A DNA stretch of 64,000 nucleotides from Myxococcota bacterium. Lineage in GTDB: Bacteria; Myxococcota_A; SURF-8. A program made the position numbers and the translations under genes. The stretch spans positions 2,656,001-2,720,000 of the forward strand of contig OZ223209.1 of assembly GCA_965140415.1 (NCBI GenBank). The letters are read 5' to 3'. Below are positions 12,800-41,217 of this stretch, one piece after another; position 1 is the first letter of the stretch, and each line of letters starts with the position of its first letter. Below the pieces are notes generated by a model. That model was not told the origin of the DNA and ran no database searches. It saw only the letters and a program-made list of their open reading frames with translations.

Positions 12800-13096
12800 G
12801 AAAAACTAGTGGTTATGCTTGTTAATTTTGTTTTCTTAAGGTAAGTTATATCATATGTAAAAGGGAATAGATGCTTGTATGGGTCTCTCCTATAACTGTT
12901 GATCGATAGCTGAGGCGGGTTTGTCGTGTGGTCGAATTCGTCTAGATTGTAACAGCTAGATTCAAGATTTGGGGTTTGGAAAATTACTTCTGAAAAAGTA
13001 ACAAAAAAAAGATCAAAAAGAGCTTGACAAGATAATAGAAGTAATGCAAGCTGGGATTCGGGTAGAGGAAATAGAAATAAAAGAAGGAGATGGAAG

Positions 13097-19629: not shown

Positions 19630-20047
19630 ATGCATCGATATTCCACCAAAATTGGAAAAGGTTCGAGAAGTCTGTGAAGAGATGACGCAAACCGTGTTAG
19701 AGGCCAGCGGCGATGCCGATTTGACGTTTCGCGTGAACATCGGTTTGACGGAGGCGCTTACAAATTCGATCGTACATGGATGCAGGAATTGCAAAACAGA
19801 GGTCGAAATCGGCTATTCCGTTAAAGATGAGCTTCACGTATTCAGCATCACAGATCCCGGTCAGGGGCCTTGCGACGAAAGCATCAAGTTCCCGAAGTTG
19901 GACGAGGATTTACTCAGTGAACATCATCGCGGCAACGTCATCATCAAGTGGGCTGCGGATGAAATCTCTTTTCAACGGCTGGAAAAAGGTTTCACGCTTA
20001 CACTGGGATTTCGGTCCAGACCGCTAGAAGAGCGGAAAATCTTATAA
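19616..20047 (+). CDS. RsbW/SpoIIAB-like Ser kinase / anti-sigma factor (GHKL)
   Basis: EALTNSIVHG N-box, DPGQG G1 box, variant G2 box (HRGNVII). ATG at 19616 overlaps the end of the STAS gene. Confidence 0.85.
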   Translation: MSCLKCIDIPPKLEKVREVCEEMTQTVLEASGDADLTFRVNIGLTEALTNSIVHGCRNCKTEVEIGYSVKDELHVFSITDPGQGPCDESIKFPKLDEDLLSEHHRGNVIIKWAADEISFQRLEKGFTLTLGFRSRPLEERKIL

Positions 20048-24565: not shown

Positions 24566-26586
24566 GACATAAACTTTTCAAGCAAGAAGTTTTCGACAAA
24601 TCCGCGACCAAGCCTGACCTTGCGGTAAGAATTGGCAATCGCGATCTCCTGTTTACGAACCAGAAACGGTGTTGCATCGGCGATGAATGCACCCAGTAAT
24701 GGGCTTTGCAGACTTCTATACTGACGAACAATGCGTTCCGCTTGATCCATTTTGGTTGTACCCGACCTAAAGACAAGAATCACGGCTTCGACAAGGGGTA
24801 CTAATTCAATGACTTGAACGAATTCAAACGCCGGAGGTGTATCGATAAGAACTAAATCGTATTGCTGCTGCAACTGTTCGATCAAGCCGACCAGGCGGTT
24901 GTTGGAGAATACATCCAAGTCCGTAGCATTACGCAAACCTGCGAACAACTGATCCGGTGCGCCATCCTGTCCCCGTCGAATTAGATTTTCTGAGAAGTCG
25001 TTCTTTTTCAATTCTTCCAGTAGTAATGGCGGTGCGGTGTTTTCCGGGTGCAGGGAGAAATCCGCATAAAGAACCTTCCGGCCTCTCTTTGCAAACGCTT
25101 CGGCTAGATTACGGGTAACTGTCGTTAAACCGCTACTTGTTGTCGGTGCGAAAAAGGCTAAGGTTTTCTTGCCTTGAAAACGCTTCTCCACCGATAGCGT
25201 GGAAACGATGGGCCGGTACATGTTGACTTCTCTGTGGGGCGCATCGAGTGGGGCTAGCGGATCGTGCAGGTGCTGCCCCAGGATCGGCAAGTCGTAGCGG
25301 TTGTAGATCTCTTTGGCGCTTTTTAGTCTGCGGTTGAAAAACTCCTGGGCCAGAATTACAAAGAGGGCAAACATCAGCCCCAATATCGGCATGGCGGCAG
25401 CAACAAGTTTTGCCTTGGAGGTTTCAGGATACTTTGGAGGAACCGCTTGCTCGATAATGCGAAACTCTCCTAATGGCTCACGTGTGATGGCAGCCGCTTC
25501 TTCACGACGCGCTGATAGATCACCCAAGGCCTGCTTGGCAAATATATAGTCCTGCTGGATGGTGAGAAACCCTTTTTCGTTTTCACTAAGTTTTTTCAAC
25601 TTGCCTTGCATATTTTCCAACTGTTGCTGAAAATTACGAAGGCGGCTGGCTGCGGCGCTACGCTGGGCAGTGAGTCGGGATTTTTCCTCTAGCGCAATGG
25701 TTTTATACACGGCGTTGATTTCGGCCTTTTGCTTGGCGATGATCGGGTTGTCATCGGTGTAGCGCGAGCGCAACTCGTCCAATTGGCTTTGCAGTTCGCG
25801 CATCTGTTGACCTCCGGTGCTGTTTTCACTGAGCTGTCCGATTCTTACGTTATCCGTATCCAAACTCCGAAGCTGTTGGTTCAACGCGATCAACTCAACG
25901 CGGGCGTTTTCGATTTCGCCTTTTAATTCGGATTCTTTCTGCAAGGAAAGGTCGGTTTCTACATCCAGTTTGACGATCCCGTGCTTTTTCCGAAATTCAG
26001 AAAGTTTTTCGGACGTTTCGGAGTATTTTTTCTGGGCTTGTTCCACGAGTATGTCGATTTTTTCCAGCGCTTCTTTGGCTTGTCTGCGGCGCAGGTTCAA
26101 AAGGTATTCCGCAAACACTTGAGCCGTGACATTCGCCAGCTTGACTGCCTTTTCCGGACTATCCAATGTTCCGGAAATGTTGATGAGATTGGAGTTCGAC
26201 GCGCGTGAAAGCGTGATTTTCCCTGCCAGATCGTGAATGTCTCCTTCGACTTCGATGCGCTTTTTGATTTCGATGAGATTGGAAGGAAGTTTGATGGTGT
26301 CCACTAAGGTGTCGATATTGGTTGCAGGCAACTCGAAGTGAGCGCCTTCACCCATCACCACGCCTTTTGCCGGGGCAGAGCGGAGAATGACAGCAGTGGC
26401 CGTATAGGCACGCCCACGAAGATACAGCGCGCCTGTGATTCCGATAATCAGGAAAAAGAGAGAGAACGCTGCGATGAAGCGCCAACGCTGAATGACAACC
26501 AGCAGAAAACGGCGCAAGTCGATATTTTTAAGAGGATTTTCCTCTTCGGTTGCCAGTTTCGGATCTGTGTTGAAAGGTTCCGCCAT
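24562..26586 (-). CDS. wzc: Polysaccharide co-polymerase / Wzc-like protein with degenerate kinase domain
   Basis: Two TM helices flanking a long coiled coil (YTDDNP), then a cytoplasmic domain with YDLVLIDTPP. Walker A reads APTTSSGLTT. Confidence 0.88.
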   Translation of the reverse strand: MAEPFNTDPKLATEEENPLKNIDLRRFLLVVIQRWRFIAAFSLFFLIIGITGALYLRGRAYTATAVILRSAPAKGVVMGEGAHFELPATNIDTLVDTIKLPSNLIEIKKRIEVEGDIHDLAGKITLSRASNSNLINISGTLDSPEKAVKLANVTAQVFAEYLLNLRRRQAKEALEKIDILVEQAQKKYSETSEKLSEFRKKHGIVKLDVETDLSLQKESELKGEIENARVELIALNQQLRSLDTDNVRIGQLSENSTGGQQMRELQSQLDELRSRYTDDNPIIAKQKAEINAVYKTIALEEKSRLTAQRSAAASRLRNFQQQLENMQGKLKKLSENEKGFLTIQQDYIFAKQALGDLSARREEAAAITREPLGEFRIIEQAVPPKYPETSKAKLVAAAMPILGLMFALFVILAQEFFNRRLKSAKEIYNRYDLPILGQHLHDPLAPLDAPHREVNMYRPIVSTLSVEKRFQGKKTLAFFAPTTSSGLTTVTRNLAEAFAKRGRKVLYADFSLHPENTAPPLLLEELKKNDFSENLIRRGQDGAPDQLFAGLRNATDLDVFSNNRLVGLIEQLQQQYDLVLIDTPPAFEFVQVIELVPLVEAVILVFRSGTTKMDQAERIVRQYRSLQSPLLGAFIADATPFLVRKQEIAIANSYRKVRLGRGFVENFLLEKFMS

Positions 26587-26601: not shown

Positions 26602-27753
26602 TTATTGCATCAGGATGCGCAAAGTTTCTTGTGTGCTACGTTGCCAACTGAATGAAGCCGCTCGTTCCGGTCCGTTTTTTTTCGCTGCTTTTCGGAAGTC
26701 CTCGTCGAACAATCCGATTTCAAGCGCTGTGGCGATACTGCGTTCGTCTTGCGGGTCGAATAGTCTTCCCGCATCGCCGACCACTTCCGGCAGCGATGTT
26801 CGATTGCTGGCTACCACCGGAATGCCGGAAGCCATCGCTTCGATGGCCGGAATGCCGAAACCTTCAAACAGCGAAGGAAAAGCCAACAAATCCGAAGCGT
26901 TATAGACGTATGGCAGTAGCTCATCGGAGACCATGCCACAGAATCGCACGCGCGAAGATAATCCGAGTTGCTTTACTTCCCTATATATATCGGCAGCGCC
27001 GTTCCAATCTTTTCCACAAAATACAAGATGATGAGATAAATCAGGATGTTGCTGAAGCAAGCGGGCGTAGCCGCGAAGCAGGCCGACGTGATTTTTTCCA
27101 GGATGTTCGAGCCGGGCGACGTACAGAATGAATGGCTCCGGCAAGTCGAGTTTCCCCGAGAGCCGCTGTCGCGCTTCCGACTTATTTCGTGGCTGAAATG
27201 CGCTGTGATCGACCCCGTTATGCACAACGGAAATCCGTTTGGAATCCACCCCGGCGTGCATAAGCAGATCATTGCGAGTGGCATCACTTACTGAAATGAT
27301 TTTCGTGGCCTGCCGCCACATGCGGGGAAGCCACCGGGTTACATACAGGGTACGCGATTTCCCATATTTTTCAGGCATGTGAAAAGGCGCCAGGTCGTGA
27401 ACCGTTGCAATGACCTTGTAGCGTCCCAAAGGAGCTTCGGGGCTCATGCGTCGATTGCCCGCCGGTAGAAACAGCACATTCAGGCGGTGAAGCAGAGCCT
27501 GCACCGGTAGTATCGAGGTGTGCCAGAAAAGATTGCCGGTGACTCCCTTGTATACTTCCGGCACGGCAACGAAACGCGTTTGTGAATCGAGATCGAGAAT
27601 CTCGCGTTCGGAATCGAAACCGAATACGGTTAGTTTGATATCCTGACTGTGCGATAGCGCTTTAATTTGTTGCCGGATATACACACCAATGCCGGAAGCG
27701 CCCCCTTCCAAGGGCATCGCTGGAACACCAAGCTGTAGCAGTCGTTCACTCAT
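26602..27753 (-). CDS. Glycosyltransferase family 4
   Basis: TVHDL, VSDAT, HNGVD, KNH and EGFGIPAIE (EX7E). Confidence 0.93.
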   Translation of the reverse strand: MSERLLQLGVPAMPLEGGASGIGVYIRQQIKALSHSQDIKLTVFGFDSEREILDLDSQTRFVAVPEVYKGVTGNLFWHTSILPVQALLHRLNVLFLPAGNRRMSPEAPLGRYKVIATVHDLAPFHMPEKYGKSRTLYVTRWLPRMWRQATKIISVSDATRNDLLMHAGVDSKRISVVHNGVDHSAFQPRNKSEARQRLSGKLDLPEPFILYVARLEHPGKNHVGLLRGYARLLQQHPDLSHHLVFCGKDWNGAADIYREVKQLGLSSRVRFCGMVSDELLPYVYNASDLLAFPSLFEGFGIPAIEAMASGIPVVASNRTSLPEVVGDAGRLFDPQDERSIATALEIGLFDEDFRKAAKKNGPERAASFSWQRSTQETLRILMQ

Positions 27754-27759
27754 AATAAT

Positions 27760-28950
27760 TTACAAACGATCACTCGTTCCCTTCCGGCGACGAATGCCGC
27801 CTTCTACCACACGGGAAATCAAATTCTCGAACTTATCTAAATATACACAAAATTTATAGTAATTATCAAACATTTTTCTACTATTATTACCTAAATCAGC
27901 AAGTAACTTGTTATCATTCAGCAGCCAGTCGAGATGGCGTCCAAGCGTTCGCCAGTCTCCTTCGGCAGCGCCCAAGCCATTGACGCCATGCCATAGCCAG
28001 TCGCGGATACCGCCCACGTTGAAGGCAACGACGGGACGTCCCGCCGCCATGGCTTCCACACCGACCATCCCGAAAGGTTCCGGCCAGCGAGATGGAACGG
28101 CAACGATAGACGCTCCCTCCAGTCGGGCTGTGCATTCGCTGTGTGAAAGATGTCCCAGGAAGTGAATCCATTCCCGAAAGCCTAACTCTTCTGTCAACTC
28201 TTCCAGTTCCTGCCGCATATTGCCATCACCGATGATCCACAATTGCCAGGGTGGAGTGACTTGCGTCATGGCTTTCAGGAGTGAATCCACCCCTTTACCC
28301 CGAATCAACTGGCCGAGATAGTAGATGGTGCGGGCATTGCCATCGACGGGTGTGGCTTTTCGATCCAGATCGCCCGGCAGAGGCGGAAGAATTTCGATGC
28401 GCTCGGCAGGTAGGCCGTTTTTGATCAGTTCATCACGCATGAAGTTGCTGGCCACAATGAGTCTGTCCAGGTCGTGATGTGCGCGGATATCCTGAAGCCT
28501 TGCAGAAATATCGAGCAGTTGCAGCTTGCCCGAAGAGGAACGTCCAACCAGACAGCCATGACGAACGCAGGCGCTTCCCGCCGCTTCGTGACAGATTTGT
28601 TTACTCAACGGAAAATACTTGTGGCGGCGCGGGCAGGTCAGGTTGTGGTCGTGAACGACACGAACGACGGGACAGGGTAGCTCGTAAGGAGGTGCAATAT
28701 CCGAAAATGGTTGATGAAGTATGAGAATGTCGGGTGATTGCTCGGACACAAGCCGGGTCAAGTCCGCTTGATTTGACAGCGCATGATGATCGGAAAAAGG
28801 GGAGAGATAATCGGGTTGTGCAGGATAGTCGCTGGAATGCAACAGCGTTTGCGTGTGACCGCGCTCGGACAGACCGCTCGTCAGTGCGAACAGGTTCTGT
28901 TCGATCCCTCCCATAAAGTGTGCTCTCTCACTGACATGCCAGATGTTCAT
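27760..28950 (-). CDS. Glycosyltransferase family 4 with a four-Cys insert
   Basis: GGIE, HDHNLTCP...ICHE...ACVRHGC, KGVD and EPFGMVGVE (EX7E). Confidence 0.92.
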   Translation of the reverse strand: MNIWHVSERAHFMGGIEQNLFALTSGLSERGHTQTLLHSSDYPAQPDYLSPFSDHHALSNQADLTRLVSEQSPDILILHQPFSDIAPPYELPCPVVRVVHDHNLTCPRRHKYFPLSKQICHEAAGSACVRHGCLVGRSSSGKLQLLDISARLQDIRAHHDLDRLIVASNFMRDELIKNGLPAERIEILPPLPGDLDRKATPVDGNARTIYYLGQLIRGKGVDSLLKAMTQVTPPWQLWIIGDGNMRQELEELTEELGFREWIHFLGHLSHSECTARLEGASIVAVPSRWPEPFGMVGVEAMAAGRPVVAFNVGGIRDWLWHGVNGLGAAEGDWRTLGRHLDWLLNDNKLLADLGNNSRKMFDNYYKFCVYLDKFENLISRVVEGGIRRRKGTSDRL

Positions 28951-28964
28951 CGGCTACCACCGGG

Positions 28965-30197
28965 TTACTTGTCGTGTAGAATCTCTTCGTACGTGTTGAC
29001 GATATCTTGCGTGATGCGACTCCAGGAATAGGACTGGACCGCCGTGCGATGACCGTTCTCGGCCAAGCGATTGGCGAATTCCAGATCGGACAACAGCTCG
29101 CTGATTGCCTGACTCAGTTCGTCCGATGAATTTGGCTCGATCTGCTTTCCGTTTTGGCCGTCCGTGACGAGTCGTCCCAAGCCGCCAATATTTGAGGCGA
29201 TGACCGGCAATCCGGCGCTCCAGGCTTCCAAAACAACAATGCCGAAGGGTTCATGCCGCGAGGACAGGGCGAAGACGTCGGCTGCCGCATAGGCATCCGC
29301 CAATTCCGCAGAACCGTGCGGCAGAGCGGGGAGCAGGTGCACCCTGTCGGCCACGCCCGATTTCCGGGCATCGTCCAGCATGCGATCGGCATAGGCGGCA
29401 TCCGTAACCGGACCGATTAAGACGACATGCACCGCCGGTTCCTTGATGGAAAGCTTGGGGAGTGCTTGAACCAGGGCCAGTTGGTTTTTTTGCGGGTCGA
29501 TGCGGCTGATACAGAGAATCACCCGATCTTCCTCTTTCAGACCATATCGTTTCCGAAAGCCCTGGCCGTCGCCATGGGCGTAGCGTTCGGGATGTACGCC
29601 GTTGGGCATGTGAAGAACGCGCTGACCGGGCATCCGCTGCCGTAGTTCGTCGGCTTCTTCTGCATTGACGCAGAATACGGCGTCTGCCCGTTCAAGCAGG
29701 CTGCGGGAGCCTAATAATGCGCCTAATGCCTTGCCCCATTCCAGCTTGCCTTGAATCGGTGCGAGCAGGTCACGGCGCTCCTCATCGGGAACGTTCAACA
29801 CGCCGCCATGCAGGGTGATGACATAGGGACGTTTATGAATCCTTGCAGCGCTAGCCACTTCTGCTCCGAAGCGCTTTCCGGTGTGCAGATGGTAAATATC
29901 GAAAGGACGGGTTCCGAGCAGTGCCGCAAACAGGCTGGCGGAAATGAGGTTGCCGCCTTTCTTGTCCATCGCCAATTGGGCCTGAGTATCAAGACCAAAG
30001 AAAGGATAGTGGTGCTTGAAACGTCGCACCACCAGACCGTCGATCAGCGCCGTTCCCGGCTTCGAAAGAGCTGCCGAGGTCCACAATTCCGTTTCGTGCC
30101 CCATATCTACCAGTTCGCGTGAAAACTCGCGAATGACAGTCTCGGTGCCGCCCCATTCCTGGGGCAGGTAGCGGCGGGCGGTTTGCAGAACGCGCAT
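28965..30197 (-). CDS. Glycosyltransferase family 4
   Basis: MRVLQ...GGTE, PNGV, RIDPQKNQ and EPFGIVVLE. ATG at 30197 follows the upstream stop. Confidence 0.92.
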   Translation of the reverse strand: MRVLQTARRYLPQEWGGTETVIREFSRELVDMGHETELWTSAALSKPGTALIDGLVVRRFKHHYPFFGLDTQAQLAMDKKGGNLISASLFAALLGTRPFDIYHLHTGKRFGAEVASAARIHKRPYVITLHGGVLNVPDEERRDLLAPIQGKLEWGKALGALLGSRSLLERADAVFCVNAEEADELRQRMPGQRVLHMPNGVHPERYAHGDGQGFRKRYGLKEEDRVILCISRIDPQKNQLALVQALPKLSIKEPAVHVVLIGPVTDAAYADRMLDDARKSGVADRVHLLPALPHGSAELADAYAAADVFALSSRHEPFGIVVLEAWSAGLPVIASNIGGLGRLVTDGQNGKQIEPNSSDELSQAISELLSDLEFANRLAENGHRTAVQSYSWSRITQDIVNTYEEILHDK

Positions 30198-30199
30198 GC

Positions 30200-31459
30200 T
30201 TATTGCCCCTGCCGTTTGAGCCGGTGAAACCACGACTTTTTCGGCCAGCGGCGCACGGTATCGGACAGAAACGATTCCAATTCCTCAAAATAGCGACGTT
30301 CCGAAAAGCGTTGCGAGACGGTATGGCGTCCACCTTCTGCCAGTTTCCGGCGCAAGTCGCCATCTTCGATTACCTGGCGGATGTGTCGGGCCAACTCGTG
30401 TGCGTCTTCCGCCTCGAAAGTCAATGCGTTTTCGCCATGATGCAGGAACTCCGCCGGACCTCCGCGCGTGGTGCTGATTACCGGAATGGCGCAGGACATG
30501 GCTTCCAGATGGGTCAGGCCAAAAGGTTCTTTCCAGATCGAGGAGAACACGAACAGGTCGTGGTCGCGGTAGATCGTGGGAAGGTTGTTGCGTTTCACCT
30601 TCCCCCAGAGACGGACGCGTTCGCCCAGACCATATTGCCCTATCATGGTTTCCAGGCGTTTCCGATATTCTGCCGTTCCCTCGCCAATGATGTTCAACTC
30701 GGCAAGAACTCCTTGTTTAGACAGCAGGTTAAGTGCTTCGATGATCGTATGAACGCCCTTGTATTCGTGTACCTGCCCGACATAAAGCAGGCGGGCGGGA
30801 CGATGCAAATGACCGGGATTTGCAGTCGGTGTGAAAAAGTCGGGATCGACACCTTGGTAGATGATGTGGGCGTCTTTCACCGGTGCGCCTTTTTCCAGCA
30901 TTTCATCGACCAGGGATTGGCTAAGCGCCGTGATCCAGGGCATACGCAGACCAAGGTAAGTATTGCGCCGACACAAACTGCGATCCAGTGCGAACCGGGC
31001 GGCATTGCGTGGAGCCAGTCCCAGTTTCGGTGGTGTATACGCTTCCAGGAAGTCATCGTTCAGCGTGACGGCATAAGGCACATCCAGACTTTCAGCCGCA
31101 CGCAGCGCGCCAAGCGTCAAGCGGCGCTGGCTCCAGAAAAACACCACATCCGGGCGCAAGCGTCGGATGGCTTGTTTGGTGATCCATTCGTTTTCCACGC
31201 CGAGGCGCAGCTTTTTCAAACGAGCGGAGCGCGGGGGCTGATCGAAGGGGGGAAACAGGCGCAGTTCGCGTCGAATGGATTCCCCATGACGGCCAATAGA
31301 AGGTAATTCCCCGGTTTTCTGTGGAATGCGATAGTCGCTGGTGAGCACGGAAACGTCGTGACCGCTACGGATCAACGAACCGGTTACAGCTTCGCATAGA
31401 ATCTCGTATCCCCCTAAAACGACCGGTGGATAGAGGTTGGAGACAACCAGGATCTTCAT
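30200..31459 (-). CDS. Glycosyltransferase family 4
   Basis: MKILVVSNLYPP..GGYE, KGVH and EPFGLTHLE. Confidence 0.93.
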   Translation of the reverse strand: MKILVVSNLYPPVVLGGYEILCEAVTGSLIRSGHDVSVLTSDYRIPQKTGELPSIGRHGESIRRELRLFPPFDQPPRSARLKKLRLGVENEWITKQAIRRLRPDVVFFWSQRRLTLGALRAAESLDVPYAVTLNDDFLEAYTPPKLGLAPRNAARFALDRSLCRRNTYLGLRMPWITALSQSLVDEMLEKGAPVKDAHIIYQGVDPDFFTPTANPGHLHRPARLLYVGQVHEYKGVHTIIEALNLLSKQGVLAELNIIGEGTAEYRKRLETMIGQYGLGERVRLWGKVKRNNLPTIYRDHDLFVFSSIWKEPFGLTHLEAMSCAIPVISTTRGGPAEFLHHGENALTFEAEDAHELARHIRQVIEDGDLRRKLAEGGRHTVSQRFSERRYFEELESFLSDTVRRWPKKSWFHRLKRQGQ

Positions 31460-32625
31460 TTTTCCCCCGATAGCCGCAGGCGTTCTTCAAGCGGGGCCGC
31501 CATTAACTTGTAAATATCCTGAATGCGGACGATGTCTTCCGGGATCTCCCGACTGGACATCAATGAGGCATTGGAAGAGGGCGCTTGCGGATGGTAGCCG
31601 TGCATGGCGGTGATGGGGCGCTGTCCCATGAAACTGGGGACGATCAGGTGGCCCTCGTCCAGCATGAAAAAGAGTTCGCCGTATTTCGAGTCGGGATAAT
31701 ACACCCCATAGCGTTCCAAGGTGTCCTGGCTGAGGATTTCACCCTCGGCGTGCTGGTTAAGCAGGTCTATGACCGAGGAGCGCGCATCCTGGTTCATAAA
31801 CCAGAAGCGAGCCATGGTGGAATCGTAAACCGCAGCGTAATCCTTGCCGAAACGGTAGCCTAACCGATCGATGTCGCGCCAGAGTTCGTGATAGGTGTGC
31901 GTATTGGCCATGCCATGATCGCTGAAAACGTACAGGTCGTAGTCTGCGTAGTGATCCGCTGCATGTTCGAATATGGTGGTCAGGCGTTTACGATAGAGGT
32001 CGATCTGTTCCAGCGCTTCATCGCTGCCGACACCCGCAACATGCATGATACCGTCTAACTTGGCGTTATAATTGAAGATCCATTCTACGGATTCGCCGTC
32101 GATGGCATCCAGTACGGATTGGTAATTTGTTTCTTCGCTCGCCCGCCAATCGGAAACGTGATAGGGGATTTTCGCCAGTTCGCAGGCGCTGAAAATATTG
32201 TCCCCCTGCAAGATGCCATCCGGGGCGAAAATACTTTTCTTTTCGCAATAGTCGAACAGGTGGATGTACTTGAACGGCATGTTGTAGATTTGAAAGTAAC
32301 CGGTATAGCCGTACAGATTTTTAATGACTTCCGAAATTTTATTGCGAATGCGCGCCCGTGACGCAAAGAAATCCGGCACCAGTCGCAAGGGCGCCAGCCA
32401 CTTGAATGGGGAATGCTCCGGGTCGTAGTAGTAGAACGAGAAGTGCCCGTGTTCATTCGGTTTTCGCCCTGTGAGAATCGTGGGCACGGCGGTGCTGGAA
32501 TACCCCAGAATCGACTCCAGCTTTTTACGCTGGGGCAGGGCGTCGTTCAGGAAATCCATATTTTTAAGGATTTCCCAGCCGAAGGCGTCGATGAATATAA
32601 ATAAAGACAGTTTCTTGTTATTCAT
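31456..32625 (-). CDS. Alkaline phosphatase superfamily protein, nucleotide pyrophosphatase/phosphodiesterase type, no signal peptide
   Basis: FIDAFG (metal Asp), GYSSTAVPTILTG (nucleophile region), DGIMH, FSDHG, MHGY. GGAGGTGA RBS before ATG 32625. Confidence 0.85.
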   Translation of the reverse strand: MNNKKLSLFIFIDAFGWEILKNMDFLNDALPQRKKLESILGYSSTAVPTILTGRKPNEHGHFSFYYYDPEHSPFKWLAPLRLVPDFFASRARIRNKISEVIKNLYGYTGYFQIYNMPFKYIHLFDYCEKKSIFAPDGILQGDNIFSACELAKIPYHVSDWRASEETNYQSVLDAIDGESVEWIFNYNAKLDGIMHVAGVGSDEALEQIDLYRKRLTTIFEHAADHYADYDLYVFSDHGMANTHTYHELWRDIDRLGYRFGKDYAAVYDSTMARFWFMNQDARSSVIDLLNQHAEGEILSQDTLERYGVYYPDSKYGELFFMLDEGHLIVPSFMGQRPITAMHGYHPQAPSSNASLMSSREIPEDIVRIQDIYKLMAAPLEERLRLSGEK

Positions 32626-32627
32626 GC

Positions 32628-34700
32628 TCAATTCACCTCCCGCCACAGTTCCAGCAGTCTCCGGGTCGCTGTTTGGCGAAAATCATTGGTGGAGCCGGAT
32701 TCCCATTGTTCCGGTGCGGGTAAAAAGAGCGCATCGGAAAGCAGGGCGGGGGACAGAATGTCATGGGAAGGTGCATACAGCAGCATCGGGGCTGCCACCC
32801 GTACACGAGTCTGGGGATGGGCGACATAGCTGCGAGCCTTGTCCGTGGATGCCGGCAGACGTCCCGAAAAACGCAGGGTCTTATAGGCGTTCAATGGAGC
32901 TTTCACTGTAAACGATGGATGTTCAAGGCGCTGCACGGTGTACTCGGACCAGGATTTGGCTCCGGTCGCAACCTGGATGAACCAGCGGTGCGCCTGCTCG
33001 AACAATTCCTTGGAGGAATTCCAGAAGGCTTGCAGTTCCTCTTTCTGTGTTAGTGGGAACGTGGGATGCAGGCGAAATTCACTGGCTTTTTGATAAGCCT
33101 GCCGAATCTGCTCGAACGGAGCCGGAGTCAGTCGTTCCAATTGCATCAGGCGTTGCAGGCGTTCCCGGTAGCTGTAGTGGTACAATCTCAGGCGCAGCAG
33201 CACGATGTCCCCAGCCGCCAGCATCGCTTTGTGGATGTTGCGCGTGACAAAGCTGACGTCCTCTTCGGAAAGGGAATCTTCCGCTTTATCAAGTACTTGC
33301 TGTGCTAAAAGAAGGCCGATTGCGCGATTCATCAATAGGCGCTCGCCTTCGTCGTAGGGAATGTCGCGTTCCTGTCGATCCGGCATCATTGCCAGAAATC
33401 GATCCGGGCCGTGCAGCATCCGGTGGCCGCGCCGCAACTCGTACCATTCGATGCGCGGTGGAGCATTCTTTAACTTCGTGGTGCTCACCGGGGCGATATC
33501 GACATCGATTCCCATCTGTTCGCTCAATTCTTCTCCGAGCTGGCGAACCTCTTCTACCAGTTTACGAGGCAGCTTCTGTGTTGGGAAATCGAAGACGGCG
33601 TACAGGTCGTAGTCATTGTACGGAACCGGACCGTTTGGAGTTTGCACGATGCCGCCTTCCCGGCGACCGTAACCGCCCCCAAGCACGATGCCTACCGGAG
33701 CGGGATACAACTGCAAAAGTTTGCTGCGGATCTGGTCGAAATCGGCAGTCAGGCGCGCTTCGAATTCCGGGTTATGCTCGATGGTGTACAAGCCTTCGGT
33801 CGGCTGGGACAGATCCGGGGCGACACGGCGATCCGGCAGGGGTGCGCTCTTGCCGCCGCGATGAACGCCGCGCCAGTGCCCGAGCTTTTCCGCAAACCGC
33901 AAAGGCAGGCTCTGTAGAGCCGCTTGAGTGTTGCTTTCCGTAATCGCATAGGAGATGTCACGAGCGGTAGTGGTGATCATCGGCAAAGCGACACGGCGCA
34001 GAAAGGAGGAGGACAGGGGAGAAAGGGAGTAGATCCAGCTATCGGCTTCTCCTTCTCCGATATGGCGCTTGTAGCTTTGCGATAGGGTGTAATTGTGGGA
34101 ATGAACGACGATTGAAGACGGTACGTAGAGCACTTTTTTGTTTTCCAGGCGAGCGCGGTAGGTCCAATCGATATCTTCCGAATATTGGATCGCTCCATCG
34201 AAGGGGCGCTTTTGCCAGTATTCGCGACGAATGGCGCTGCCTGCCATCGAGAAGAAGTGCCCCCAACTACGATGACCGCCTTCCGGACCGAAAGCACGCT
34301 CGTAGTCCATTTGGACCAGGGGCGTGGCGTCGGGTCGGGCAATCTGGCGGCTGAAGGTGGCGATCAGGTCAGGATCGGATTTGAAGGGGGCGATCAGATT
34401 TGCCAGCCAATCGCGCCCGACCGGGGTGGCGTCGGCATTTAAAAACACCACGACATCGCTTTCGCATAGCGACATGCCCATGTTAAGCACCTGGCCGGGG
34501 ATGTATTCGTTGGGACGAATGTGGTAAAGACGACCTCCCAATTCGCGGATGACATCCAGGCTGCCGTCGGTCGAGCCGCTGTCGATGTGAATCAACTCGA
34601 ACGACACACCTTGCTGATTACGCAATGATTCCAACGTCTGGCGGACGAGTTGCGGAGAGTCATTCATCGAACGCATGATAATGGTGGTTTTCTTTTTCAT
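32628..34700 (-). CDS. GT2 (rhamnosyltransferase-like) fused to a Pol-beta-superfamily nucleotidyltransferase + helical domain
   Basis: N-half: DSGSTDGS, FLNADA, RQIAR, SEDIDW, HSH. C-half: LGGGYGRREGG...NDYDL...VDVDI, then a helical bundle (KAMLAAGDIVLL...SYRER). ATG 34700 behind GAGGG. Confidence 0.82.
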   Translation of the reverse strand: MKKKTTIIMRSMNDSPQLVRQTLESLRNQQGVSFELIHIDSGSTDGSLDVIRELGGRLYHIRPNEYIPGQVLNMGMSLCESDVVVFLNADATPVGRDWLANLIAPFKSDPDLIATFSRQIARPDATPLVQMDYERAFGPEGGHRSWGHFFSMAGSAIRREYWQKRPFDGAIQYSEDIDWTYRARLENKKVLYVPSSIVVHSHNYTLSQSYKRHIGEGEADSWIYSLSPLSSSFLRRVALPMITTTARDISYAITESNTQAALQSLPLRFAEKLGHWRGVHRGGKSAPLPDRRVAPDLSQPTEGLYTIEHNPEFEARLTADFDQIRSKLLQLYPAPVGIVLGGGYGRREGGIVQTPNGPVPYNDYDLYAVFDFPTQKLPRKLVEEVRQLGEELSEQMGIDVDIAPVSTTKLKNAPPRIEWYELRRGHRMLHGPDRFLAMMPDRQERDIPYDEGERLLMNRAIGLLLAQQVLDKAEDSLSEEDVSFVTRNIHKAMLAAGDIVLLRLRLYHYSYRERLQRLMQLERLTPAPFEQIRQAYQKASEFRLHPTFPLTQKEELQAFWNSSKELFEQAHRWFIQVATGAKSWSEYTVQRLEHPSFTVKAPLNAYKTLRFSGRLPASTDKARSYVAHPQTRVRVAAPMLLYAPSHDILSPALLSDALFLPAPEQWESGSTNDFRQTATRRLLELWREVN

Positions 34701-34930: not shown

Positions 34931-36091
34931 ATGAAAATACTGGTAGCTGAAGATGACAACATGATGCGGCGCATGCTGGAAGTGTCGCTGCTGCGCTGGG
35001 GTTATGCCTGCCAGGTTGCTGAAAACGGTGACAAAGCCTGGAAAAGTTTCGAAAGCGGCGAGTACGATATTGTCATCACGGACTGGATGATGCCGGGAAT
35101 GGATGGTATCGAACTGTGCAAGCGAATTCGAAAAGCTCCGGGAGTCGGCTATACTTATATCATTTTGCTGACTTCTTTGGACAGCAAGGGGCATCTGGCG
35201 CATGGCATTGAAGAAGGGGCGGACGATTACATCGAGAAGCCTTTCGATCCGGCGGAATTGCGTGCACGTCTGATGGCTGCCGAGCGAATCCTGAAACTGG
35301 AACGTTCGCTTGCGGCATCGAACCGCAAAATGTCCGACGATCTTCGTAAGGCCGCGACTACACTGGAAAACCTGTTACCCAACAGAAAAACCTTCTCCGA
35401 TCACTTGAAAGTGGATTGGCACTTTCAGCCGACCGGATATATCGGTGGAGACTTTTTCAACATTCAACGGCTGGATGATTCCAATGTCGCCGTGTACATG
35501 ATCGATGTCAGCGGGCATGGGGTTTCGGCAGCGTTGATGGTCACTTTGCTGCACCATTTACTGCGTCCGCAATTGGACCAGGGTGGCATTCTGGTAAAAG
35601 CGGACGTGAGGGGAAATACACGTCTGGCCAGCCCTTCCGAAGTGGCGGAAACTTTAAACCAACGCTTTCAGATTGATGCGAACACAAGTATGTTCTTTAC
35701 GTTTTTCTATTGCATCGTGAACGTGAAAGAACGAAGTGTGCGCTGGATGCGTGCCGGTCATCCAAGACCCTTATTGCTGTCGAATCATGAGTTGGTTGTT
35801 TTGGAGGCGGGCGATCCGCCCATCGGTGTGCTGGAGGATCATCATTTTCAGGAATATCGGACGGACCTGCAACCTGGTGATCGATTGATTTTGTTCTCCG
35901 ATGGATTGACCGAGCTTGAAAACCCTCAGGAAGAACAATTCGGTGAAGATGGATTGCGGGAGATTTTAGCAAAGGAACCGTATCATAACTTGCCGGAATT
36001 GATTACTTCCGTCGTGGCCGGGGCGCACTCGTTTTGCATGAAACGCGAGCCGGAAGATGATATCTCGCTATTGGCATTTGAAATTTTGTGA
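34931..36091 (+). CDS. Response regulator with PP2C/SpoIIE phosphatase output (RsbP/RsbU-like)
   Basis: REC: VAEDD, TDWMMP, KP. PP2C: GGDFF, DVSGHG, AGHP, FSDGL, DDIS. Confidence 0.95.
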   Translation: MKILVAEDDNMMRRMLEVSLLRWGYACQVAENGDKAWKSFESGEYDIVITDWMMPGMDGIELCKRIRKAPGVGYTYIILLTSLDSKGHLAHGIEEGADDYIEKPFDPAELRARLMAAERILKLERSLAASNRKMSDDLRKAATTLENLLPNRKTFSDHLKVDWHFQPTGYIGGDFFNIQRLDDSNVAVYMIDVSGHGVSAALMVTLLHHLLRPQLDQGGILVKADVRGNTRLASPSEVAETLNQRFQIDANTSMFFTFFYCIVNVKERSVRWMRAGHPRPLLLSNHELVVLEAGDPPIGVLEDHHFQEYRTDLQPGDRLILFSDGLTELENPQEEQFGEDGLREILAKEPYHNLPELITSVVAGAHSFCMKREPEDDISLLAFEIL

Positions 36092-36098: not shown

Positions 36099-38474
36099 CT
36101 AGCGTACCGGTTGATGTCCATGGCTTTTCTTGATACGCTGCATGGCCTGCCATAACCATCCTTTAGGAGACGGCAAGGGGATTTCGATTTGGTACAAGGC
36201 ATCTTCCTGCTGCGCCCAGGATTTTTTCCAGGAAGATCCCTCGCCTCCCAGTTCTACGTTTCGTATTCCGATTTCATGCAAACGCTTTAGCCAGTTGTAA
36301 AACGTGAATTGTCCCACTCCATAGCGATGATAGTCGCGGTCGTAGGCTGTGAGCAACGCATAGGCATTCGCTTTGCGAATCAATCCCAGATAGGTGGCAA
36401 CGGGTTTTCCTTCAATGCTGAGCAGAAAGAGGTCCAGTTCGCTTTTCTGCGCCCAATGTTCCGCAGCTTCTCTGAAATAGGCGGCAACCAATTTCGGATC
36501 GGAAAAGCCGGTTTTTGTCGCTTCTTCGATCTGCCAGGAATTCTTACGCAACTGTTCAAATTTCTCGAAAAGTTCTTGAAAGTCCGGGTCGGAGAAGGTT
36601 TTGCCACTGACGTGCTGAAATTCGAATCGGGAGTGGAAGTCCTTTTCGATTTTTCGTTCAGATCGTTTGATATTCTTGATGAGATTCTTGTGTTCTCTCT
36701 GAAGGTTCTGCTCGTATTCTTCAAACGTTTCAGGGAATTGGATGAGTTGACTTACTGTGAAGATGCGTGACTGAACGAAGTGTTGTCTGGCATGCAATTC
36801 CTGAAGCCACCGGTTCGCGTTGTTCTCGTCCTGACGGTACAGGCCGATCAGATCGGTCTGGGTGATCTCTGCGATTCGGGGAAGGGCATCCGTCATTTTT
36901 CGGCAGGCCATATCCTCCAAGCCTTGACGCATCGGAAATGCAGGAAGCCGCATGGTCATTTGATCCAGTGAGCGGAGAGTTGTAAAGGATATTCCCCGGC
37001 GAGTGACCTGTTCTTCCAGAAAGATAGCCGCAGCCAATAAGCCACTTGGGCGGCCTTCCGGCATGGGAATGCGGATGACCCAGCAGCGTTGATTCGGGAA
37101 GAAGTGTTTCCAAAGCGTGAAGGAATGTTCCCAACTCGACCAGGGAGTTGAAAAACTACTGTTTTCCAACTGTATGAATTCTTTTCGAATATCCTGCCAA
37201 TCGTTTTCGGATTGAAGAGGCGTTACTTGTATGTCTGGTGTCGCGTGAGCAGTTGACTTGGCTGTCGTTGTCTTACCGGTACCGGTCGAAGCTTCAAAAT
37301 CCTGGCGACTTTGAATGGCGTGGACCGGTTCGAAATGACTCGGTCGGAATCGCTGAAGTTGTTGTTGCAAACTAAAAAGGCGTGCTTTCCAGCCCGCTAA
37401 TGGCACTTCCAGCATATGAACGGGGCGTTCATGAGTGGACCAGCGCCGTTTCCATAACACGCCTTCACCACCGAAATCCAGCGTCCGATCGCCTCGGTCG
37501 TGGCTGTCTAAAATCATGTGCATCAGGTTATTGGTGCCGATGCCGTATTGCTCGAATTCCGTACCGTAATAGGTCATCAATAACCACAGGTAACCATCGA
37601 TGGCGACGTTGAAATAGCAGCTAAGTAATTGATCTCCCAAACGATAAGCGCAGAAGTCAAGCTGACCTAGACGACTCCATTCTTTTGCCGATTGTTCAAC
37701 GTATTGAAAACCCTGTGCAATTGGAGCCTGGCCGTGCTGTGACTGTGATTGCGTTTGCCAAGAGGAACGCCACAGATCGAGAAATTGCCTCCAAAGCCCG
37801 TTGTCTTTTAACTGCTGGAACACATCACCGCGAAATCGCTCGAAAACGGGTGAAAGTCCACTGTGCTCAGCCAGTTTGCGCTCCATGCGCTGCATATTGT
37901 GGCGTTTCTTTTTGACATTGGATTGTTCGAACCAGCAGGTCAAATCCAGTACTTGATCGTAGGTTAATAGTCGGTCTCGATAAGTAACTCCCGCCTTGTG
38001 TAATGCCTCCGTCCACTGTCGCCGATTTTGATGGTCTAATTGCCCGAAACACAACTGATCACAATCACTAGCTTTTCCTATTTGAGCCAATGCCGAAGCC
38101 AGGGCGTTATAAGCTTCAGGGCGATTTTCATCGGAAACGAGTATTGGTGGATAAGTCGCGGCCATCCAATCCAGCGAACGCAAAATTTTCAGCGTTCCAT
38201 ATCGTCGGCGAGAGTGTTCTTCTCGAAATACGCCAATTGCGATCAGATCGGACTTTCGCCGCATTTCCATCAGCCAGAAGGGAGCTTTTGGAAAACCGAG
38301 AGTGCGAGCCTGATGAATATGCAGCCAGCCGGACCAGGGATTTGAAGGGACGGTTTGGGAGAGGTGTTTGACAGAAAAACGGCATTGATCCCAGGCGGAG
38401 TCGTCGTTCAAGGCGATCAAGTGGATTTCAACACCGTTCGGGCAGAGAATCCTATTGGTTCGAGGGATTCTCAT
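36099..38474 (-). CDS. Tandem-duplicated GNAT/FemAB-like (CelD/BcsL-type) acyltransferase
   Basis: Two homologous ~380-aa modules ending FEQYGIG...DFGGEG..WKRRW and YHRYGVG...ELGGEG..WKKSW. ATGA overlap with the upstream gene puts the start at 38474. Confidence 0.8.
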   Translation of the reverse strand: MRIPRTNRILCPNGVEIHLIALNDDSAWDQCRFSVKHLSQTVPSNPWSGWLHIHQARTLGFPKAPFWLMEMRRKSDLIAIGVFREEHSRRRYGTLKILRSLDWMAATYPPILVSDENRPEAYNALASALAQIGKASDCDQLCFGQLDHQNRRQWTEALHKAGVTYRDRLLTYDQVLDLTCWFEQSNVKKKRHNMQRMERKLAEHSGLSPVFERFRGDVFQQLKDNGLWRQFLDLWRSSWQTQSQSQHGQAPIAQGFQYVEQSAKEWSRLGQLDFCAYRLGDQLLSCYFNVAIDGYLWLLMTYYGTEFEQYGIGTNNLMHMILDSHDRGDRTLDFGGEGVLWKRRWSTHERPVHMLEVPLAGWKARLFSLQQQLQRFRPSHFEPVHAIQSRQDFEASTGTGKTTTAKSTAHATPDIQVTPLQSENDWQDIRKEFIQLENSSFSTPWSSWEHSFTLWKHFFPNQRCWVIRIPMPEGRPSGLLAAAIFLEEQVTRRGISFTTLRSLDQMTMRLPAFPMRQGLEDMACRKMTDALPRIAEITQTDLIGLYRQDENNANRWLQELHARQHFVQSRIFTVSQLIQFPETFEEYEQNLQREHKNLIKNIKRSERKIEKDFHSRFEFQHVSGKTFSDPDFQELFEKFEQLRKNSWQIEEATKTGFSDPKLVAAYFREAAEHWAQKSELDLFLLSIEGKPVATYLGLIRKANAYALLTAYDRDYHRYGVGQFTFYNWLKRLHEIGIRNVELGGEGSSWKKSWAQQEDALYQIEIPLPSPKGWLWQAMQRIKKSHGHQPVR

Positions 38475-39604
38475 GGATCTTCTCCGGTTGGGAAAGCCGT
38501 GTTTTTCTTTAGGAATCGATGATAGGTTGACCAGACCGTTGATTTGAATCCCCACAGTGGCAAGGTGACTTCATGAGTCGACACGAGTTCGTTCGACCAG
38601 AACAGTTTGCCGGATTCGGCAGCGCCTCCCAGGATGATTCTTCGGTCGCCATTATCGTAACTATCTTGTAATTGCTGGTGAAACAAGATTCGTCCCGGAC
38701 TGAATCGGGCCAGCTCCAGATCGTAGGACAGTAAAATCACCCACTGAATGTCATCGGTGATCACATTCACCTGACCAGCAACTAGACGGTCTCCGGCGCG
38801 CAGCAATAAGAGATCCAGCCAGCCCAAATCTTTCCAACCCGAAACGGCCTGTTGGAAAAAGCGGGTAAGCCGTTCGACATAACCATTATTCAGACGCTGG
38901 GCTTCCTTGTATTGCCAGGTTCGTGTGCGTAACTCCTCGAATTCCTTCCAGAGTTGATTGAATTCCTCTTTTTGAGCTTGCTGACCACGGATTCTTTGAA
39001 CGGCTAACGGCTGTTTTAATTCTTCTTCCAACATACGCATGGAACGGCGGATGTTGTACAGGGATTTTCTTTTCTTGGTTTTGAAATAAGCTTCTACACC
39101 ATCAACTAGTGATAGTTCGTGGCTGCGATTAAACTGTTTGTGATGATATGGAATATGTTTGTTTTCCAAATCCGAAACGATTTTCCTGCAACGTAACGGA
39201 TTCATTTTGTATAGCGAAATCAGATCGGAGTTGGTGGCTTTTGCAATGTCTTTTCTTTTTTCAAGGAAGGCCTGGCACACGGTATCTTCACAACCGGAAC
39301 GAACGATCATAGGTGCCATGTACATCACAGCAAAGTCCATCGAGCGTAATTCACGGAAGCGAAGACCATGACGTTTGTTGAAGCATTGGATGAAGAAGCC
39401 GGCGGAAAGGAGTTCTTTTCCAAGATAAATCCGAATTAGCCAGGCGGGTCTGCCTTCGCCATGCATTACCCAGACAGCCTTTTGAAAATTCCAGTTCATA
39501 TACGGATCGGGTGGAGCGGCTTTTTCCAACGCCTGAATCTCATCGCGTACACAGAGCCAGTCCTGCTCAGTGTATAGTGCGGTTGTGATTAAGGTCGGTT
39601 TCAA
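38471..39604 (-). CDS. GNAT/FemAB-like (CelD/BcsL-type) acyltransferase
   Basis: YDLELARFSPGRIL...ILGG...KLFWS, same layout as the downstream modules. TTG start behind AGGAG. Confidence 0.8.
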   Translation of the reverse strand: MKPTLITTALYTEQDWLCVRDEIQALEKAAPPDPYMNWNFQKAVWVMHGEGRPAWLIRIYLGKELLSAGFFIQCFNKRHGLRFRELRSMDFAVMYMAPMIVRSGCEDTVCQAFLEKRKDIAKATNSDLISLYKMNPLRCRKIVSDLENKHIPYHHKQFNRSHELSLVDGVEAYFKTKKRKSLYNIRRSMRMLEEELKQPLAVQRIRGQQAQKEEFNQLWKEFEELRTRTWQYKEAQRLNNGYVERLTRFFQQAVSGWKDLGWLDLLLLRAGDRLVAGQVNVITDDIQWVILLSYDLELARFSPGRILFHQQLQDSYDNGDRRIILGGAAESGKLFWSNELVSTHEVTLPLWGFKSTVWSTYHRFLKKNTAFPTGEDP

Positions 39605-39615
39605 AGTTCCTGCTC

Positions 39616-41217
39616 CTACGATCGTTTTGTAAAGGATCGAATGCGATCCATCAAATTACCGATTTGCTCTCGTTCTTCTTTAAGGGCCGTAATCTTGAAG
39701 AATACGAAATAATAACTGAATGCCGACAGCAGTCCGAATCCTGCGGCAGCCGCCATCCAGAGCCGACCTTCCGGTACGAAGCGCTGCATCAGTTCTGCAA
39801 GTCCGAAACCGATTGAGACGCAAACGGCAAAGGGCAGGACATGGGTGCGATAAACCATGCTCCACCAATATCTCAAGGGGACGTCCATACGTTTTGAAAT
39901 TCGGTTTAAAAAGAGCGGAATCATCAGGGTGACATTAAGAAAGAGTCCAGCCAGTGCAACACCTAAAGGCCCCCAAAGATTACCGCCGGTGTAGGCCAGC
40001 GGAATATAGGCCAACAGAAAGAGGATGGAGACGGAATTCGTCCAACGATGTTCTCCCGATAAGGTCAAGGCGTTACTGGCGGTCATGTAGGGAGCGCCTA
40101 AAGCCACGCTGGAGGCTAAAACAGCTAATGGACCGGCGGCTTCGGTGGCCAGATCGCCTCCAACCCAGCCTTTCAGGAAGGGGCCGCCTAAAGGAATGGC
40201 AACCGCAGCCAGTGGACCGCTTAAAAGCATTGCGCGTCGGGAAAGCGCCAGGGTCAGCCAACCGGCTTCCTTGCGACCTTCTTTGGAATTGGCGGAGAGT
40301 TTGGCAATCGTCGGACCACCTGCAAAAATCACCTGTGCGGACAATTCCGCACTGATGGAAGTCAGTCGACTGGCAATACCGAAGGCACCTGTTGACACCA
40401 GACCGGCGGTGACCTGTACCAGCAGTACTCCGGAACGCGCCAGAAAAACGGCGACGATTTGGCCCAGCCAGGCAAATACGGCAAACTCGGATAAGCGCTT
40501 GACGTGAGAGCTTTTAATACGGAAGGGATTGTAACTCCCAAGAGGAACAACCGAGCGGGACATGACGACATAGAGCAGGTGCTCCAGCAGCATGGAGCCT
40601 AAATAGGCGTAGGCCAGACCCATCAAACCAAGTTCCGAGGATAACGCCCAAAGCCCAAGGAAGAAGTAAATGATGTTGGCGATGCCCTGGGTAAAATGCG
40701 CACGCGCCATTTTTCGTTGAGAAATCAACACGGTGCTAAAGGTGCGCATTGGAATGGAGATGGCCAGTCGCCAGATGAAAATGGCGATCACGCCACCCGC
40801 CTCTTCCGTGAAATGACCTGGAACCTCAAAAAGATGTGCAATTTCAACTGAAAAGGGCAGGCCAATCAGCAATACCAACAGGCCACTGCCCATTGTCAAC
40901 CAGAAACTGACATTGGCAAGTTCCCTCATTTCCTGCGGATTGCTTAGAAAGTCGATTTCGCTCAGGTAGCGATTGGAAGCCTGGACAAGCCCCATTTCCA
41001 GGAAGCTTAGAACCCCGACCAGCGCCATGGCCAACGTCCAGATACCGTATTTCTCTTCCCCGACATAATGAATGATGATCGGAACCAGGATCATCATGGC
41101 AAGCAGTTGCGTCGCCATGCGGAATGCACCGCTGAAGGCGTGCAGAGTCATCCAATAGTCGGTGTGACCTTCCATTGGGGCAGGGATTTGATCTGGAATA
41201 TTAGGGCCTTCGACCAT
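39616..41217 (-). CDS. wzx: Oligosaccharide flippase (MOP superfamily)
   Basis: About 14 TM helices. PIIIHYVGEEKYGIW...LEMGL..A..RY N-terminal pattern of Wzx. Heads the EPS genes. Confidence 0.85.
   Translation of the reverse strand: MVEGPNIPDQIPAPMEGHTDYWMTLHAFSGAFRMATQLLAMMILVPIIIHYVGEEKYGIWTLAMALVGVLSFLEMGLVQASNRYLSEIDFLSNPQEMRELANVSFWLTMGSGLLVLLIGLPFSVEIAHLFEVPGHFTEEAGGVIAIFIWRLAISIPMRTFSTVLISQRKMARAHFTQGIANIIYFFLGLWALSSELGLMGLAYAYLGSMLLEHLLYVVMSRSVVPLGSYNPFRIKSSHVKRLSEFAVFAWLGQIVAVFLARSGVLLVQVTAGLVSTGAFGIASRLTSISAELSAQVIFAGGPTIAKLSANSKEGRKEAGWLTLALSRRAMLLSGPLAAVAIPLGGPFLKGWVGGDLATEAAGPLAVLASSVALGAPYMTASNALTLSGEHRWTNSVSILFLLAYIPLAYTGGNLWGPLGVALAGLFLNVTLMIPLFLNRISKRMDVPLRYWWSMVYRTHVLPFAVCVSIGFGLAELMQRFVPEGRLWMAAAAGFGLLSAFSYYFVFFKITALKEEREQIGNLMDRIRSFTKRS

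Follow-up and report, generated by a model that had tools for sequence, protein, structure and literature searches.

Why would a bacterium fuse a glycosyltransferase to a nucleotidyltransferase within a cluster for exopolysaccharide (EPS) synthesis, and place the gene for a phosphodiesterase directly behind it? This arrangement is found in a 64,000-nucleotide stretch of a Myxococcota genome (assembly GCA_965140415.1, contig OZ223209.1, positions 2,656,001 to 2,720,000 of the forward strand), hereafter the window. In what follows, NT is the Pol-beta nucleotidyltransferase domain and its family, AP is the partner enzyme of the alkaline-phosphatase superfamily with an NPP fold, and Udk is uridine kinase. 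Our preferred but tentative answer, to which we give somewhat less than even weight, is that the pair performs a two-step tailoring reaction: NT may attach uridine or cytidine monophosphate (UMP or CMP) to a hydroxyl group on one of the sugars in the lipid-linked repeat unit, after which AP may trim away the nucleoside and leave the phosphate behind. Phosphate on capsules, O-antigens and EPS sets charge, metal binding, phage recognition and antigenicity, and the known routes to it use kinases, CDP-alcohol donors or periplasmic lipid donors. If the proposal is true, a two-gene cassette offers a further route, predictable from genomes, and the chemistry of aminoglycoside nucleotidyltransferases gains a housekeeping counterpart. 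The two folds are known ones and the family of NT is uncatalogued; we place the pair among glycan-tailoring cassettes. New from this analysis are the repeated GT2 fusion, a minimal GT4-GT2-NT-AP operon, a clade of AP that has no nucleophile, and a copy on a viral contig. A search of the open-access literature, with subscription journals and bioRxiv supplements outside its range, found no description of the pair; in their accessible parts, PMC4000134 deals with a different sugar-phosphate nucleotidyltransferase and PMC8752142 is unrelated.

A glycosyltransferase fused to a nucleotidyltransferase

The fusion gene (P0001; 32628..34700, on the minus strand, as are all features of this gene and of its partner) encodes 690 amino acids from its ATG, and is delimited by the open reading frame (ORF), the PF00535 match and fused homologues. 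Residues ~1-285 (33846..34700) form a GT2 domain of the GT-A type that matches PF00535 (E 3e-16, 60.3 bits against a cut-off of 23.3). Its motifs DSGSxDG, N88-A-D90, E175-D176 and HSHNY are 94-100% conserved across 52 orthologues, the x position excepted, and thus the domain looks intact. The usual DxD is replaced by N88-A-D90, an NxD variant that is invariant in the orthologues.

The rest of the protein, residues ~300-690 (32631..33803), is a nucleotidyltransferase by predicted fold. The AlphaFold model of this region has a pLDDT (predicted local distance difference test) of 91.7, and contains a Pol-beta domain, a HEPN-like four-helix bundle and additional C-terminal helices. The loop GGGYGRREGG (33651..33680), an hG[GS] motif with a conserved G342, is followed, within NDYDL, by D363-Y-D365 (33606..33614), the first two predicted metal ligands, and by a third acidic residue, D401 (33498..33500); the aspartate codons start at 33614, 33608 and 33500. 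Across 129 family members, position 363 is Asp in 123, position 365 is Asp or Glu in 128, and position 401 is Asp or Glu in 123, so that the full Pol-beta signature hG[GS]...Dx[DE]...[DE] is present. Also conserved are the basic residues R459, R487, K491 and R514 of the bundle. The pattern G[GS]YGR-x(8-25)-[ND]Dx[DE] occurs only once in the six frames of the window. The original prediction, made from the letters of the window, had read this gene as a GT2 joined to such a domain and a helical bundle, and the exact translation, the motif conservation and the model all bear this out. It had also been staked beforehand on the C-terminal half having a nucleotidyltransferase fold, and this is the fold that the structural comparisons return.

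The closest solved folds are AAD(9) and AadA (Z 13.5-14.0, rmsd (root-mean-square deviation) 3.2-4.3, 212-226 residues aligned), headed by AAD(9) 6xxq (Z 14.0, rmsd 3.2, 212 aligned) and AadA 5g4a (Z 13.8). Lower in rank come ANT(4') (Z 11-11.9), the oligodeoxyadenylate synthase HalB (10-11, aligned over model residues 35-391), DrrA (10.6), GlnE, which represents the relatives of GlnD among solved structures (9.0), and Tam41 (6.8). The aminoglycoside O-nucleotidyltransferases as a group, AadA/ANT(3'')(9), AAD(9) and ANT(4')/KNTase (6xxq, 5g4a, 7uy4, 6p06; Z 11-14), share with NT the Pol-beta domain, the four-helix bundle and three acidic residues, and their acceptor is a sugar or cyclitol hydroxyl. 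Since the nearest solved relatives nucleotidylate sugar hydroxyls, the fold gives a lead on the substrate, though not a proof at 10-13% sequence identity. NT differs from them in its ~110 extra C-terminal residues, in its GGYGR loop and in its setting: it is found beside AP in loci for glycan biosynthesis, whereas the aminoglycoside enzymes act alone in resistance. Nor does the likeness extend to the sequence level, as PDB sequence searches with the NT domain and its profile gave only chance matches.

A Pfam search of the whole protein found nothing beyond the GT2 domain, and residues 300-690 match no family in Pfam or NCBIfam. Among 96 NT relatives, PF01909 matches weakly in six and the LicD domain in none. 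The 30 nearest clusters in the ESM Atlas all lack a common Pfam family. The family is nevertheless large: a profile search (E up to 0.001) collects 3,049 clusters at 50% identity, and despite these ~3,000 clusters it has no Pfam model.

Fusion to GT2 is not the rule. In the first homologue search, and within the lengths searched, NT stands alone in 97 of 100 homologues and is fused to GT2 in three; P0003-P0005 are full-length fused homologues with 48-52% identity to the window protein. On the tree, fusions occupy three or four separate positions, with weak deep support: the window family (one clade, support 1.0), P0368, G114 and possibly P0230, which may be a read-through artefact. The GT2 orthologue itself was found only in NT-bearing genomes in two genome sets (15/15 and 23/23), is the immediate neighbour of NT at 26 of 52 loci, and persists with GT4, NT and AP as a small operon amid housekeeping genes where the cluster is broken up (L246, L247, L250, L251). 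This retention and the repeated fusion tie the NT of clade I, the branch to whose conserved cluster the window belongs, to the substrate or product of that GT2. The GT2 neighbours of clade II belong to different subfamilies (18-65 bits against the clade I GT2 profile), and some clade II loci have none; the NT-AP pair is therefore the core of the system, and the glycosyltransferase its changeable part. Apparent long fusions of NT or AP in G027, G088, G138, G128, G083 and G153 match no extra domain, and the inspected ones are false upstream extensions or frames that span gaps. No NT-AP fusion was seen in length-limited searches that were not designed to find one.

A partner of the NPP fold

The AP gene (P0002; 31456..32625) begins with an ATG at 32625, 2 nt past the TGA of the fusion gene, and its ribosome-binding site GGAGGT (32635..32640, the GGAGG core at 32640-32636) lies inside the 3' end of that gene; the gap and the site are those originally described. 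The 389-residue product matches PF01663 (E 2e-12, 47.5 bits against a cut-off of 23), and its model (pLDDT 96) has an NPP fold, with ENPP6, ENPP4, ENPP7 and Xac NPP as best matches (Z 27-29). The six metal ligands of a two-metal site are complete, and S43 (codon 32499-32497) occupies the place of the Ser/Thr nucleophile; D13, S43, D191, H195, D236, H237 and H342 are invariant in all 84 clade I sequences. The original prediction of an NPP-type enzyme without a signal peptide holds for fold, metal ligands and the missing signal peptide, and fails for two hallmarks seen in an annotated NPP: the T-[FY]-P-N-H motif is absent, with S-S-T-A-V in its place, and the Asn eleven residues after TG is replaced by F64. 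Compared with the NPP/ENPP enzymes (Xanthomonas NPP 7mw8, ENPP4-7), AP also has Ser (clade I) or Gly (clade II) for Thr, a family-specific DSTxxRxW motif and a cationic amphipathic insertion, and differs in having no signal peptide.

AP is predicted to be cytoplasmic. No signal peptide is found: the first metal-binding Asp is already residue 13, and the highest hydrophobicity over 19 residues is 1.08. Residues 77-102 form conserved, cationic, amphipathic helices (moment 0.72 and net charge +4 for residues 92-102), which suggests that the enzyme works on the inner side of the membrane or that its substrate is anionic.

In clade II the metal ligands are kept, and the nucleophile position is Gly in 96% of 56 sequences, within a near-invariant GFCER; Cys-Glu-Arg is invariant two to four residues after this Gly (L144-L223, for example L181:5461-6717). 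This argues against a universal covalent transferase, and leaves room for water or a hydroxyl of the substrate itself to attack. An AP homologue labelled Myxococcales has 63% identity to the window protein. A second AP paralogue in G004 (L135:9164-10288), in housekeeping surroundings, has Thr for D13 and Gly for D236 and is probably inactive.

The two genes travel together

Co-occurrence was followed in samples of 201 genomes of the window's phylum, 151 of the Verrucomicrobiota group and 151 of the Planctomycetota group. In the window's phylum, NT is present in 16 genomes and AP in all 16 of these, and in 19 altogether; of the other three, G132 has a strongly diverged NT directly behind AP, and no NT was found in G072 and G167. 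In the Verrucomicrobiota group, 31 genomes have NT and 30 have AP, all within the 31. The Planctomycetota group has full-length NT in six genomes (two short matches were set aside) and AP in six, with both in five and adjacent in four. The expected co-occurrence of the two genes is thus seen, with AP in 16/16, 30/31 and 5/6 of the genomes that have NT, and it extends to glycan loci that are otherwise unrelated.

Those loci are best seen in clade II, sampled as 80 mostly marine contigs, some of them near-duplicates, with varied genes of O-antigen type. Here NT and AP are adjacent in 62 loci and one to three genes apart in eight, among otherwise unrelated glycan genes; in nine of the remaining ten, the contig ends within 746 nt downstream. 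Clade II, unlike clade I, can therefore single out the pair. Among the 80 loci sampled for clade I, AP lies inside the fetched flanks at 36 (24 of 42 where the flanks are full); for loci without it, AP was found elsewhere in the genome in ten of ten checked out of 44, sometimes amid housekeeping genes. Tree distances of NT and AP correlate over 119 pairs (r 0.82, and 0.92 and 0.62 within the clades), a figure that has no control gene and is uncorrected for shared ancestry.

The pair is present in named records of Verrucomicrobiota, Lentisphaerota, Cloacimonadota, Planctomycetota and Hydrogenedentota and in marine metagenomes, its range in Pseudomonadota resting on hit names; cultured carriers are Haloferula sargassicola, H. 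luteola and Opitutus sp. ER46. Plasmid records gave no match to clade I NT, clade I AP or clade II NT, and only distant ordinary NPPs for clade II AP. The clade II cassette is unmatched in E. coli genomes by blastn, a test of low sensitivity. Among 72 pattern matches in viral contigs, the only confirmed relative is IMGVR_UViG_3300025073_000659 (L258:2750-6587), where GT4, AP, NT and GT2 form one run downstream of a capsid-like ORF recognized by eye. A recurrent neighbour in clade II, at 26 of the 80 loci and often right after AP, is an RmlD-like reductase that scores under the curated cut-off (L179:2776-3687). As exceptions to the coupling, a divergent AP subfamily marked by GYSVNCQT occupies the glycan loci L132:9252-10367 and L133:14041-15198, with no NT nearby or genome-wide, and its relative in L131 has NT.

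A uridine kinase near the pair

Udk is found in 25 of the 80 clade I loci and in 12 of the 80 clade II loci; at 16 and four of these, respectively, it is no more than 300 nt from NT or AP. Neither count has a control set of pair-less glycan loci beside it. Five of six tested kinases exceed the NCBIfam cut-off for Udk, and a quick tree derives the Udk genes near the pair from several lineages. In the Verrucomicrobiota group, Udk occurs in 11 of 31 genomes with NT and 11 of 120 without (odds ratio 5.5, among kin that are not independent). A UdK match in L072 (52 bits, in a 341-residue ORF) was judged spurious and left out. What glycosyltransferases release is UDP or UMP and not uridine, and for this reason a recurring nucleoside kinase points to a step that frees a nucleoside.

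A possible route to phosphorylated glycans

From the folds and active-site residues, the cytoplasmic AP, the NT-AP linkage and the residence in glycan loci we infer every chemical step of the following route. The setting would be a surface polysaccharide made by the Wzx/Wzy pathway. GT2 would add its sugar to the repeat unit linked to undecaprenyl pyrophosphate. NT, acting like the aminoglycoside O-nucleotidyltransferases, would then transfer a nucleoside monophosphate (NMP) from a nucleoside triphosphate, most likely UTP or CTP, to a sugar hydroxyl, plausibly on the sugar just added by GT2, with loss of pyrophosphate. AP, at the membrane surface, would cut the phosphodiester on its nucleoside side, giving a sugar phosphate (a monoester, a cyclic ester or a new diester) and setting uridine or cytidine free; uridine kinase, where present, would recycle this nucleoside. 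In sum, the glycan would gain a phosphate with neither a sugar kinase nor a CDP-alcohol donor involved. One pointer to this acceptor is that the closest NT folds, AAD(9)/AadA and ANT(4'), act on sugar hydroxyls. A substrate that is a glycan or close to the glycosyltransferase, which the original prediction had favoured, is supported by fold, repeated GT2-NT fusion and gene context. The same prediction spoke of a candidate writer/eraser module and left three options; of these, one-way addition and trimming fits somewhat better than a mark on a protein or a transient NMP cap, because uridine kinase recurs and one clade of AP has no nucleophile.

We advance more guardedly, as a possible but doubtful extension, that phosphorylated or cyclophosphorylated glycans are made here by a widespread route that needs no kinase, in which ANT-like uridylylation or cytidylylation is followed by expulsion of the nucleoside by an NPP-fold enzyme of reversed regiochemistry, with Udk recycling. 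In clade II, a neighbouring sugar hydroxyl or a metal-bound water would make the attack, which could close a cyclic phosphate. LicD/FKRP-type enzymes (Pol-beta fold) and OpgB/EptA/LtaS-type enzymes (AP fold) also put phosphate-linked groups on glycans; they act alone with a CDP-alcohol or phospholipid donor, whereas in the present cassette the folds occur as a pair, with AP in the cytoplasm. Glycans with cyclic phosphates are known: Gal-4,6-cyclophosphate in V. cholerae O139 (PMC3210612) and Rha-2,3-cyclophosphate in C. difficile SLCT-11 (PMC6254364), with no enzyme named for either in the accessible parts of these papers. The proposed chemistry could make such products, and the pair thus offers candidates; a link between them was sought and not found. 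The accessible O139 supplements (PMC9484750, PMC6458141) give gene names but neither sequences nor an NT or AP annotation. The fused GT2-NT protein is a convenient object for a test, since what its first domain makes is probably its acceptor.

Several observations weigh against the add-then-trim route. Its main weakness lies in the third step: canonical NPP enzymes release NMP and regenerate a free hydroxyl, and trimming by AP needs the reverse. In the route's favour, AP has neither TFPNH nor the NPP Asn, so that NPP regiochemistry need not apply to it. With a clade II AP that has no nucleophile, one mechanism may not cover both clades. On the NT side, differences in Z at 10-12% identity do not fix the substrate. 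The kinase could simply supply UTP. The window cluster has no uridine kinase and its genome has only one distant PF00485 match, in a 561-residue frame; a search with a single query gave no Udk in 20 of the 31 NT-bearing Verrucomicrobiota-group genomes, Udk lies away from the cluster in seven of nine NT-bearing genomes fetched, and in E. coli K-12 udk is 5 kb from wza with no NT. The clade I cluster is inherited whole, a GT4 marker being present in 27 of the 31 NT-bearing genomes, so that within clade I the co-occurrence is not specific to NT and AP. By annotation, neither NT nor AP genes appear in Table S1 of PMC6254364 for C. difficile SLCT-11, a locus with a cyclophosphate at the end of its glycan; two of its ORFs have no domain.

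Other readings of the pair

Donor remodelling or phosphotransfer, which we consider unlikely, survives best among the alternatives. Here the pair would act on soluble precursors. In the first form AP would split a nucleotide sugar and NT would re-activate the sugar-1-phosphate with another nucleotide for the fused GT2; in the second, NT would activate a small phospho-alcohol as Tam41 does, and AP would transfer it to the glycan through Ser43 in the manner of OpgB, EptA or PIG-type enzymes. Tam41 does have the same fold (Z 6.8), clade I AP combines an invariant Ser with a full metal site, the RmlD-like reductase recurs in clade II loci, often right after AP, and the cluster's classical NTP_transferase protein has no catalytic motif. 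Both forms release NMP, however, which leaves the uridine kinase unexplained. A covalent transferase step would find no Ser or Thr in clade II AP, and AP is far nearer the NPP hydrolases (Z 25-29) than EptA/MCR-1 (Z 13). The GT2 neighbours of clade II, being of other subfamilies, do not fit either.

A transient NMP cap is less probable still. NT would block a hydroxyl of the repeat unit as a protecting group or checkpoint, AP would strip the NMP before flipping or polymerisation, and the mature EPS would be phosphate-free. The fold and linkage evidence is the same as for add-then-trim tailoring, the membrane-facing helices of AP fit, and canonical NPP regiochemistry would be respected. The cap gives no reason for a uridine kinase, however, and a protecting group would be expected to be tied to one assembly line, yet the cassette sits among many sets of glycosyltransferases; such variable loci would usually encode structural variation.

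Reversible protein NMPylation, in which NT would uridylylate or adenylylate an EPS enzyme and AP would erase the mark, as with GlnD and GlnE, is improbable. It was suggested by the GGYGRxE motif, whose loop we take to resemble that of GlnD, and this resemblance is the part of the original GlnD-like label that stands. GlnE (Z 9.0) and DrrA (Z 10.6) share the Pol-beta fold with a helical bundle, and partner-switching proteins in clade I clusters (SpoIIE-HATPase, WecG-STAS) make post-translational control of EPS plausible. The ANT enzymes fit the fold better, however, AadA and AAD(9) being nearer than GlnE, and searches of NT with Pfam and NCBIfam found no GlnD or GlnE model match, no HD, ACT or other sensory domain and no second NT domain. 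The eraser would have to be a separate NPP-fold gene, the context is glycan synthesis, and clades I and II share no conserved target protein.

A nucleotide signal for the tuning of glycan synthesis, an oligo- or cyclic nucleotide made by NT and degraded by AP, with Udk recycling the nucleoside, would account for free nucleoside and for fold matches to HalB (Z 10-11) and to ENPP1 and PorX relatives, but is very improbable, as no conserved receptor adjoins the pair, the PADLOC anti-phage defence models give only one 18-residue hit (E 0.008), and fusion to a glycosyltransferase is unexpected for a diffusible signal.

The surrounding gene cluster

The fusion gene heads a same-strand run from 34700 to 20042. 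Behind AP come four genes for GT4 glycosyltransferases whose orthologues belong to the conserved cluster of clade I (26602..31459), a Wzc-like co-polymerase and a Wza-like export protein (23606..26586), a WecG-phosphoglycosyltransferase fusion (21551..23569), and a protein with NTP_transferase, hexapeptide and partial Bac_transf domains (20042..21514), all on the minus strand and assigned by domain search, with ortholog matches for the GT4 genes and a motif search for the last protein. Upstream, a Receiver-SpoIIE (RsbU-like) regulator diverges from the fusion gene (34931..36091, plus strand), followed by two Acetyltransf_6 (GNAT) proteins and a Wzx/MATE-like flippase (36099..41217, minus strand), also found by domain search and in the same arrangement in the relative G035. 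A Wzy orthologue lies elsewhere in the genome (E 7e-66), and the Wzx/Wzy-dependent EPS set is thus complete, with initiating phosphoglycosyltransferase, glycosyltransferases, flippase, polymerase, Wzc and Wza. The fusion gene, which had been called the first gene of the main EPS operon, does head the run, but the flippase and the two GNAT genes are further upstream and the polymerase is at another site. A promoter-like site at 34864-34836 shows no excess over chance (four found, 3.5 expected).

The NTP_transferase protein has no canonical GGxGTR, and the motif is absent from all 43 orthologous ORFs, several of them truncated, in the 42 loci where the gene is conserved. By sequence, it is probably a pseudo-enzyme or a scaffold next to the initiating transferase. 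The operon is flanked by STAS-like and RsbW-like genes (19279-20047, by eye) and by the RsbU-like gene; other clade I clusters have WecG fused to STAS domains (L042:8848-10524) and GAF/HATPase/SpoIIE proteins. Partner-switching phosphorylation may directly control a glycosyltransferase in these clusters. One protein of the GNAT pair (36099-39604, minus strand), located between flippase and regulator, has 818 residues and two domains. The GNAT genes, seen also in L141 and L129, suggest that this family decorates the same EPS with acyl or aminoacyl groups. Several clusters encode, after AP or Wzy, a member of a family of small membrane proteins that occur by themselves or joined to a receiver-like domain (L247:7675-8352, L060:15570-15980), the short form having no Pfam match at 1e-4. 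Finally, the window encodes large secreted proteins or lipoproteins of 1237, 762 and 560 residues (7222-15385, 48626-50308) that are unrelated to the pair.

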